Below are positions 6,333 through 6,663 of a DNA stretch of 32,599 nt, piece after piece (within the stretch, counting starts at the first letter, position 1; each line of letters begins with the position of its first letter). Location: IMG/VR virus record IMGVR_UViG_2713896897_000010, positions 1 to 32,599 of that record. One strand, written 5' to 3'. Made by a program: the position numbers and the translations under genes. The notes under the pieces are model-generated. The model was not told where the DNA came from and ran no database searches. It was given only the letters and a program-made list of their open reading frames with translations. The stretch comes from a virus (lineage: Duplodnaviria > Heunggongvirae > Uroviricota > Caudoviricetes).

Positions 6333-6416
6333 ATGACCTGGCCTGAGGCATTCACCACGGTAGGAATTGCGATGGCGGTGGCGCTGGTGGTGTATTCGAT
6401 TTGCCGCTGGGGCTAA
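6333..6416 (+). CDS. 27-aa hydrophobic single-TM peptide (MTWPEAFTTVGIAMAVALVVYSICRWG)
   Basis: GGAGG at 6321-6325, 7 nt upstream of ATG; start follows stop of upstream gene by 4 nt; perfect 9-bp inverted repeat immediately downstream (6428-6458). Confidence 0.35.
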   Translation: MTWPEAFTTVGIAMAVALVVYSICRWG

Positions 6417-6573
6417 AGCATTTTAAGACGCCTTGCTCATAAAGGCGGGGCAAGGCGTGCATAGGGTATGTTTAGTTAAACATTGATATAACCAAATCTT
6501 ATTTTCTGTTGCTGCGATGAGAAGGCGGGCACATATTTATCATGCAGGTGCTCGTCTGATGTGGGAGGTTATC

Positions 6574-6663
6574 GTGCTGGCACTGAAATGCGCGCTGGCT
6601 ATTGCGGCTGTAATGGCAATTTATTGTCTTGTTATTGTTCTTATGGATCACCTTTCTGATTGA
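6574..6663 (+). CDS. 29-aa hydrophobic peptide (MLALKCALAIAAVMAIYCLVIVLMDHLSD), type I toxin-like
   Basis: GGGAGG at 6563-6568, 5 nt upstream of GTG start; strongly hydrophobic single-TM peptide. Confidence 0.35.
   Translation: MLALKCALAIAAVMAIYCLVIVLMDHLSD

Follow-up and report, generated by a model that had tools for sequence, protein, structure and literature searches.

The stretch of DNA analysed here (positions 1 to 32,599 of IMG/VR virus record IMGVR_UViG_2713896897_000010, hereafter the window of 32,599 nt) is identified as a lambdoid prophage by its gene content and by profile and Rfam searches. On its plus strand, just ahead of a hok locus, lie two short open reading frames, a 27-amino acid (aa) ORF1 and a 29-aa ORF2. 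The initial annotation of the window, made from the letters alone, described them as small hydrophobic peptides with strong Shine-Dalgarno (SD) sites on either side of a perfect 9-bp inverted repeat, and suggested that together with hok they may form a small-toxin island. Direct reading of the sequence confirmed both ORFs, their GGAGG-like SDs and the repeat at the positions collected in Table 1. Our analysis indicates that the two peptides are new or under-described prophage-encoded small membrane proteins. We propose, with a probability of roughly 0.6, that ORF1 and ORF2 are unrelated, independently mobile genes of lambdoid Escherichia prophages, whose products are accessory single-helix membrane modulators and not stand-alone killers.

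ORF1 and ORF2 as conserved small genes

Whether such ORFs persist in related prophages had been left to a homologue search, lack of conservation being named as a reason to discard them; both turned out to be conserved, ORF1 in 1,575 and ORF2 in 1,928 of 5,426 complete E. coli genomes (blastn). Of 94 phage records with tblastn matches, 92 contain ORF1 at full length (933W, VT2-Sakai, VT1-Sakai, ArgO145, BP-4795 and Min27 among them), and a degenerate DNA pattern for W-P-E-A-F...(C/F)-R-W recovered more than 120 loci from IMG/VR. The 129 copies compared represent 65 unique DNA sequences and 39 peptide variants, and all but one (128/129) have exactly 27 codons, with the start one codon before the W. 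The peptide encoded in the window is the commonest form of the family (38 of 129 copies); it occurs unchanged on 79 public contigs, where GenBank labels it hypothetical or "bacteriophage protein", and at no locus inspected was ORF1 annotated by the Prokaryotic Genome Annotation Pipeline (PGAP) or RefSeq. The family can be defined by 27 codons, W3-P-E-A-F7, G11, Y21-x-x-[CF]-R-W, an SD 7-10 nt upstream and a start/stop overlap with an ead/Ea22-like or DUF551 gene, and the window copy deviates only in the last feature.

Differences between the ORF1 copies are concentrated in third codon positions (11,766, versus 7,192 and 5,027 in the other two), and the pooled ratio of nonsynonymous to synonymous polymorphism (pN/pS) is 0.32, as compared with 0.86-1.94 for other frames, with the exception of the wobble-matched antisense frame (0.39). 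The latter was rejected as a candidate gene: blocks of homology stop exactly at the ends of ORF1, and the downstream flanks are unrelated between contexts. The ends of the mosaic homology blocks coincide with the ORF1 boundaries, e.g. ArgO145 matches the window at 6331-6417 with 96.6% identity, and the length variants remain in frame. This pattern of conservation argues that ORF1 is a real, widespread and conserved small gene. The length variants comprise expansions of an Ala-Met dipeptide repeat (GIAMAMAMAMAVAL...) and one duplication of 15 residues (P0093, P0100, P0051); the expansions in the helix may reflect slippage-prone hexanucleotide repeats.

A scan of one genome per species, for which we used a strict ORF1 motif that more distant relatives outside Escherichia would escape, detected intact ORF1 only in E. 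coli, Shigella flexneri, an Escherichia sp. and three short contigs; protein databases also contain entries from E. albertii and, rarely, from Salmonella. The three contigs, from Xanthomonas pisi (431 bp), Acinetobacter idrijaensis (369 bp) and a metagenome-assembled genome of Segatella copri (1780 bp), carry ORF1 with E. coli-type flanks and are most likely the result of contamination with E. coli prophage DNA or of mis-binning. Another 24 matches to the pattern in unrelated genomes are due to chance: all lack a start codon at the equivalent position and many contain stops.

The genes 5' of ORF1 are ead/Ea22-like mosaics, whose products end in DUF551 or another C-terminal domain. An SD of the AGGAGG or GGAGGA type is kept in nearly all of ~40 junction variants, which form two main upstream sequence classes unrelated to each other, and in 102 of 121 loci the ORF1 ATG overlaps the upstream stop codon as ATGA. 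At the window junction (6310-6328) a 1-nt deletion relative to most family members (…CCGCCGCAGGAGGTGAATCAATGA) makes the DUF551 frame end in PEPRRR at 6328, so that it does not overlap the ORF1 ATG; this ending is found in two sequences of the junction set, the window and one other locus. The clustering of 121-aa DUF551 proteins with ORF1 raised the idea of a DUF551-ORF1 fusion or a programmed frameshift. We rejected both. The 121-aa proteins contain no ORF1 sequence, the cluster link having come from partial calls at contig edges; no slippery site is visible by eye at the junctions, and the SD and ATG of ORF1 are kept in unrelated contexts. Elsewhere, a near-identical DUF551 gene is followed by an ASCH gene and not by ORF1.

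ORF2 is unannotated in all 12 of the records listed, and GenBank entries for a 29-aa "membrane protein" (P0119, P0120) use its GTG start. Two types can be distinguished, type a as in the window and type b (ORF2b), which has 34 aa and reads MSDDI[LS]LAMEGALAVIAVVGVYCLVVFLMDRLGN (RefSeq WP_001278447.1). They share 50% identity (tblastn E=5e-8), the frame and the class of stop position, and the core A-L-A-[IV]-x-A-V-x-x-[IV]-Y-C-L-V-x-x-L-M-D-x-L is present in the window copy. The GTG, an SD 5-6 nt ahead of it and a TTGnnn-17-CATATT element are kept in 7 of 7 distinct type-a upstream sequences with differing spacers. Alternative starts at ATG 6559 (34 aa) and ATG 6517 (48 aa) were rejected as unconserved, the former being ATA or GAG in relatives. 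The plus-strand frame of ORF2 is the sole one open in both types, and pN/pS within type b is 0.23. We conclude that ORF2 is a genuine conserved small gene. In phage HannyBb (PP925841.1, 2456-2745) two minus-strand coding sequences for a "hypothetical protein" are annotated over the ORF2/hok-promoter region; minus-strand ORFs at this place are interrupted by stops in all 18 type-b sequences, and judging from this comparison the HannyBb annotations are probably miscalls.

Across both strands of the 32.6-kb window, 29 ATG or GTG starts have GGAGG or AGGAG 5-10 nt upstream; seven of these open ORFs of 20-50 aa, and a hydrophobic 19-residue segment is present in ORF1 and ORF2 alone. The two ORFs are therefore beyond chance in the window, and the features noticed initially, one hydrophobic helix for each ORF and functional-looking SDs, are conserved across relatives.

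A translation record exists for the ORF2 family. XECs145 is an intergenic small gene of E. coli O157:H7 Sakai reported by Hücker et al. (2017, PLoS One; PMC5597208). In uninduced Sakai grown in lysogeny broth (LB) it showed a transcriptome value of 79 and a translatome value of 346 reads per kilobase per million mapped reads (RPKM), a ribosome coverage value (RCV) of 4.35 and an ORF coverage of 0.99; ribosome profiling (RIBOseq) detected translation also in the brain heart infusion (BHI) control, and the gene was classed as "real", with a predicted inner membrane location (PMC5597208). As published, the XECs145 frame is extended upstream by 20 codons and so runs over the 3' end of ORF1 (PMC5597208); the start that is conserved at this locus is the ATG of MSDDI... 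Among the ORF2 homologues XECs145 is type b: over 34 aa it shares 50% identity with the window ORF2, together with the YCLV..LMD.L core; like ORF2 in the window it is predicted to be a membrane protein and sits just upstream of the hok promoter, after ORF1. The window ORF2 differs from it in starting with GTG, in being 29 aa long, in having a promoter-like element to itself, and in ending right against the hok -35 hexamer. The XECs145 family, known before as a translated small gene, thus includes ORF2 as its type-a form. A full-text literature search with the peptide strings returned no paper, and the EDL933 translatome supplements contain no match.

The hok module and the defective prophage

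The initial annotation placed both ORFs just upstream of hok. This holds for ORF2, which is physically tied to it: ORF2 lies upstream of hok in every locus examined, and adjoins hokD without ORF1 in E. coli B, a dog isolate and phage HannyBb. In type a its stop codon is 8 nt ahead of the hok -35 hexamer; type-b loci have a palindromic hairpin and ~75 nt between ORF2 and the hok promoter. K-12 has no ORF2, and relBE sits at that position. For ORF1 the proximity to hok is not general. We found 56 ORF1 loci with neither ORF2 nor hok within ~1.3 kb downstream (in VT1-Sakai, for instance, xis-int comes next), 37 loci with hok directly after ORF1, as in 933W (L0139, ORF1, sokW/hokW), and the order ORF1, ORF2, hok in 21 loci with flanks long enough to judge. 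Each ORF occurs without the other, and ORF1 accompanies ead/Ea22-like or DUF551 genes, which speaks against the two as a single island. Judged by this distribution, ORF1 and ORF2 are two separate, independently mobile modules that are neighbours here by happenstance.

In type-b loci (e.g. L005 1100-1330, E. coli 2013C-4974), direct repeats of GGGTAAAAACG bracket the ORF2b cassette relative to the 933W arrangement, which suggests that ORF2b was inserted between ORF1 and hok as a small insertion. ORF2b is followed by a perfect 22-bp palindrome, CGATATGGGAATTCCCATATCG, with an EcoRI site, which is unrelated to the inverted repeat of the window.

Table 1. Features of the window in and around the ORF1-ORF2-hok region
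Feature	Position	Strand	Details
ORF1, 27-aa single-helix membrane peptide	ATG 6333 to TAA 6416	+	MTWPEAFTTVGIAMAVALVVYSICRWG; sequence read directly
ORF1 Shine-Dalgarno	6320-6325	+	AGGAGG, 7 nt before ATG, within last DUF551 codons
Perfect 9-bp inverted repeat	6428-6436 / 6450-6458	.	ACGCCTTGC / GCAAGGCGT; 11-bp RNA stem, 9-nt loop
Putative weak sigma-70 promoter-like element	6509..6537	+	TTGCTG-17 nt-CATATT, upstream of ORF2; 7/12 versus consensus
ORF2 Shine-Dalgarno	6563-6568	+	GGGAGG, 5 nt before GTG
ORF2, 29-aa single-helix membrane peptide	GTG 6574 to TGA 6663	+	(V/M)LALKCALAIAAVMAIYCLVIVLMDHLSD
hok mRNA promoter	6671-6699	+	TTGGCG-17 nt-TAGAAT; promoter scan 9/12; intact
hok mRNA leader and sok antisense region	6706-6880	+	Rfam RF01794, 114.7 bits, E=8e-27; intact
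mok; hok	6818-7030; ATG 6875-7030	+	Pfam HOK_GEF E=3e-23, PHROG MokW-like; hokD in relatives' annotation
Intrinsic terminator closing the hok module	7099-7116	+	7-bp GC-rich stem then TTTTATTG; intact
DUF551 (ead/Ea22-like family) gene fragment	5808..6328	+	5'-truncated; Pfam DUF551 E=4.9e-17
Integrase (split over two ORFs), RecT, RecE		-	window gene order
DUF551, ORF1, ORF2, mok/hok/sok, conserved 70-aa ORF, DUF1367, YbcO, Q-like antiterminator, holin, late genes		+	window gene order

Homology to intact DUF551 genes is limited to window 5808-6326, while homology to recE covers 5390-5821, with its right end at ~5806-5821 (minus strand, recE being truncated 5'). In a comparator with an intact DUF551 gene, the start of that gene lies 31 nt before the alignment sets in, and the recE and DUF551 halves are contiguous in no complete E. 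coli genome. These alignments place a deletion joint between recE and DUF551, by which the immunity and replication regions, the DUF551 promoter and the first ~10 DUF551 codons are gone. The prophage in the window is therefore defective and ORF1 is left without its native transcription signal; since the operon promoter is deleted, ORF1 is probably poorly expressed or silent here. The 207-aa DUF551 ORF listed for the window begins at GTG 5705, inside antisense recE sequence, and hence is partly antisense recE. The catalytic and Arm-DNA-binding domains of the integrase lie in separate minus-strand ORFs (1-930 and 946-1236), which suggests a frameshifted or interrupted gene, consistent with a defective prophage.

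Two observations concern the region at and beyond the 3' end of hok. A sub-threshold Rfam match to the Salmonella Hfq-binding small RNA IsrK (7039-7120, plus strand; 31 bits versus a gathering score of 50, E=2e-4) spans the 3' end of the hok mRNA and the terminator. The 70-aa ORF 3' of hok (7306-7518, plus strand) matches phrog_1813 (E=1.7e-30) and has no Pfam domain; at the equivalent position in relatives PGAP calls a 70-aa hypothetical ORF.

Possible functions and alternative explanations

In profile searches neither ORF1 nor ORF2 clearly matched a Pfam, NCBIfam, PHROG or PADLOC family, and neither matched HOK_GEF (PF01848) at E<=1, with which the neighbouring hok scores E=3e-23. The similarities of ORF1 to KdpF (TIGR02115; 14.7 bits versus a cut-off of 26.85, over 12 residues) and of ORF2 to ATP synthase c and SecE (far under the curated cut-offs) are sub-threshold. 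Residues 1-23 of ORF1 align with positions 33-54/57 of phrog_4612, a borderline match (E=0.019, 16.3 bits). By the measure of these searches both peptides stand outside Hok/Gef and every curated small-protein family. In general character they resemble small inner-membrane regulators such as AcrZ, MgrB, MgtS, CydX, KdpF and PmrR. These proteins stay below 50 aa, span the membrane with one helix, have a strong SD, frequently escape annotation, and work by binding to membrane proteins larger than themselves. ORF1 and ORF2 share with them the length below 50 aa, the single helix and the strong SD; they differ in showing no significant similarity to them, and in being prophage-borne and found in Escherichia/Shigella and occasionally in Salmonella and E. 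albertii.

On the Hessa scale the hydrophobic 19-residue segment of ORF2 scores -3.6, i.e. strongly hydrophobic, and for ORF1, two variants besides the window copy were scored, at -0.9 and -1.7. Both peptides would insert in the inner membrane as single helices. For ORF1, the positive-inside rule predicts that the acidic N-terminus (WPEAF) is outside and the C-terminal CRWG inside (E5 versus R25). Its least variable unconstrained positions are G11, A13, A15, L/F18 and Y21, and the conserved G11-x3-A15-x2-L18 face could provide packing of the GxxxA type, fitting a helix-helix contact. By analogy with the known regulators, both peptides may act through helix packing, either on a larger membrane protein or among copies of themselves. 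In intact phages ORF1 is the final cistron, placed behind an accessory gene (ead/Ea22-like or DUF551) of the early operons; its translation would be coupled, because the ATG overlaps the upstream stop (ATGA) and is preceded by its own SD, and would proceed together with that of the Ea22-like early proteins. The left margin of the hokD module would be formed by ORF2 (weak promoter, SD, GTG, ORF2, hok promoter, mok/hok/sok and terminator, in this order), made in lysogens from its own weak promoter by transcription that runs on into hok. From this likeness we infer a moron-type role of accessory modulators for both.

Several points weigh against this interpretation. The helix of ORF1 in the window is only borderline hydrophobic (Hessa +0.2). 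The mechanism by partner binding is a pure analogy and the partner is putative, and overexpression of ORF1 or ORF2 could still prove toxic. The promoter scan passed over the putative ORF2 promoter, which fits the consensus at just 7-8 of 12 positions. Selection on type-a ORF2 is weakly resolved at its low diversity (pN/pS 0.45), and the comparison of types a and b (pN/pS 0.58) is near saturation. The Sakai RIBOseq study listed ORFs of at least 93 nt (PMC5597208), so that ORF1, with 84 nt, was not scorable there; in genomes with multi-copy prophages RIBOseq reads can also be multi-mapped.

Of the alternatives, the one that survives best, albeit as an unlikely one, is the small-toxin island proposed initially, in which ORF1 and/or ORF2 would be membrane-damaging toxins, division inhibitors or superinfection-exclusion peptides alongside Hok. 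Both peptides are short and hydrophobic, and comparable in size to Hok, TisB, ZorO, DinQ, Ibs and Ldr; ORF2 consistently lies beside the promoter of a bona fide hok/sok locus, which in 933W-type phages ORF1 abuts as well, and inner-membrane exclusion proteins encoded by phages are known. However, neither ORF matches a toxin, Hok, Ldr, Ibs, TisB or defence family. Among the catalogued Rfam families searched, no antisense RNA was found over 6333-6663, sok (6706-6880) being the only one nearby, and the best minus-strand promoter-like sites, which score 7-8/12, include no convincing antisense promoter. Type I toxins have a cognate antisense RNA or a leader fold-back, neither of which was detected here; the SDs are strong, and the segment 6405-6575, which includes the SD of ORF2, shows no significantly stable RNA structure. 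ORF1 would moreover be translationally coupled to a protein gene and not repressed. The high ribosome occupancy of ORF2b in growing lysogens argues against a potent toxin, which cells would not tolerate, and the finding that ORF1 is mostly away from hok, presumably co-translated with early genes, argues against a dedicated toxin island. Roles as toxin, Kil-like division inhibitor or exclusion factor are thus possible, with no positive support.

A distinctly less probable reading concerns ORF1 alone, which could be an obligate membrane partner of the ead/Ea22-like proteins. ORF1 directly follows ead/Ea22-like or DUF551 genes in 933W, VT1-Sakai and ArgO145, which places it in the exo-xis/Ea22 accessory region shared by lambda and the Shiga toxin (Stx) phages, with Ea22, Ea8.5 and Orf60a/61/63/73. 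Stoichiometric ORF1, supplied by the ATGA coupling, would then serve as an inner-membrane tether or relay for the pro-lysogenic Ea22-type proteins, which are otherwise soluble. A homologue of ORF1 was sought after ea22 of lambda itself, where none is present, and no ORF1-like peptide is mentioned in the exo-xis papers PMC10834534 and PMC10789677. In yeast two-hybrid surveys, as far as they are cited in PMC10834534, Ea22 had no partners, and a partnership with ORF1, if true, would help to explain this. By a parallel reading, ORF2 may be a lysogen-expressed membrane peptide that modulates the insertion or activity of Hok.

It is similarly doubtful that ORF2 is mainly a cis-acting element of hok, with transcription and translation of a short ORF into the hok promoter tuning hok/sok and the peptide being dispensable. 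Such a role would agree with the fixed position of the type-a stop codon before the hok -35 hexamer, with the promoter-like element kept upstream, and with the lack of a predicted terminator between ORF2 and the hok +1. On the other hand, purifying selection acts on the amino acid sequence of ORF2, whose helix persists across types a and b despite their divergence, many hok loci work in the same context without ORF2, e.g. hokW of 933W, and in type b the intervening hairpin and spacer keep ORF2 and the hok promoter apart.

The perfect 9-bp inverted repeat between the ORFs, singled out initially as a notable feature, lost this status upon comparison: inverted repeats of 9 bp or longer within 40 nt number 38 in the window, and the hairpin is missing from the four closest type-a relatives (L001, L004, L021, L025), in which the site pairs weakly or not at all. 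A second perfect 9-bp repeat of this kind (CAATATCGA / TCGATATTG, 13-nt spacer) lies at 6215-6245, inside the DUF551 coding region. It is very unlikely that the 6428-6458 hairpin works in termination or processing and so keeps ORF1 apart from ORF2 and hok, even though its 11-bp GC-rich stem begins 12 nt past the ORF1 stop codon and type-b loci carry a different perfect 22-bp palindrome after ORF2. The hairpin has the stem of an intrinsic terminator without the U-run (no U-tract follows, the tail being GCAUAGGGUAUG), the terminator scan makes no call at 6428-6458, and the fold of 6405-6575 has ordinary stability (z = -0.86). We regard the repeat as a chance-level hairpin, incidental and specific to this variant.

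Least credible of all is that one or both ORFs are non-coding and conserved through the recent spread of near-identical prophage DNA or as a DNA- or RNA-level signal: many copies do share >90% identity, PGAP annotates neither ORF1 nor ORF2a, and the antisense frame of ORF1 (pN/pS 0.39) is open in 64 of 65 sequences, but ORF1 subfamilies that differ at up to ~80% of synonymous sites keep the start, stop, length and helix, the SD of ORF1 is kept across unrelated flanks, its indels are in frame, an antisense ORF would have to begin in non-homologous DNA because homology ends at the ORF boundaries, and ORF2b has ribosome footprints, with the minus-strand ORF broken in 18 of 18 type-b sequences.

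Implications for prophage annotation and ea22 genetics

The ORF1 gene and the ORF2 gene each occur in roughly a third of complete E. coli genomes, almost never annotated by the standard pipeline, and the two add to the evidence that prophage accessory regions conceal many small membrane proteins. ORF2 moves the left limit of the prophage hokD module and makes visible what went missing from K-12 upon replacement of that region by relBE. Because ORF1 overlaps the stop codon of Ea22-like/DUF551 genes, genetic work on these pro-lysogenic genes in Stx phages needs controls for polarity on, or uncoupling of, the ORF1 cistron; if ORF1 were indeed a partner of the Ea22-like proteins, it may also have been lost or uncoupled in the ea22 deletions published for Stx phages. 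Current concepts are left unchanged by the genes described here, and their value lies in better annotation of prophages and in the caution they recommend for ea22 genetics.

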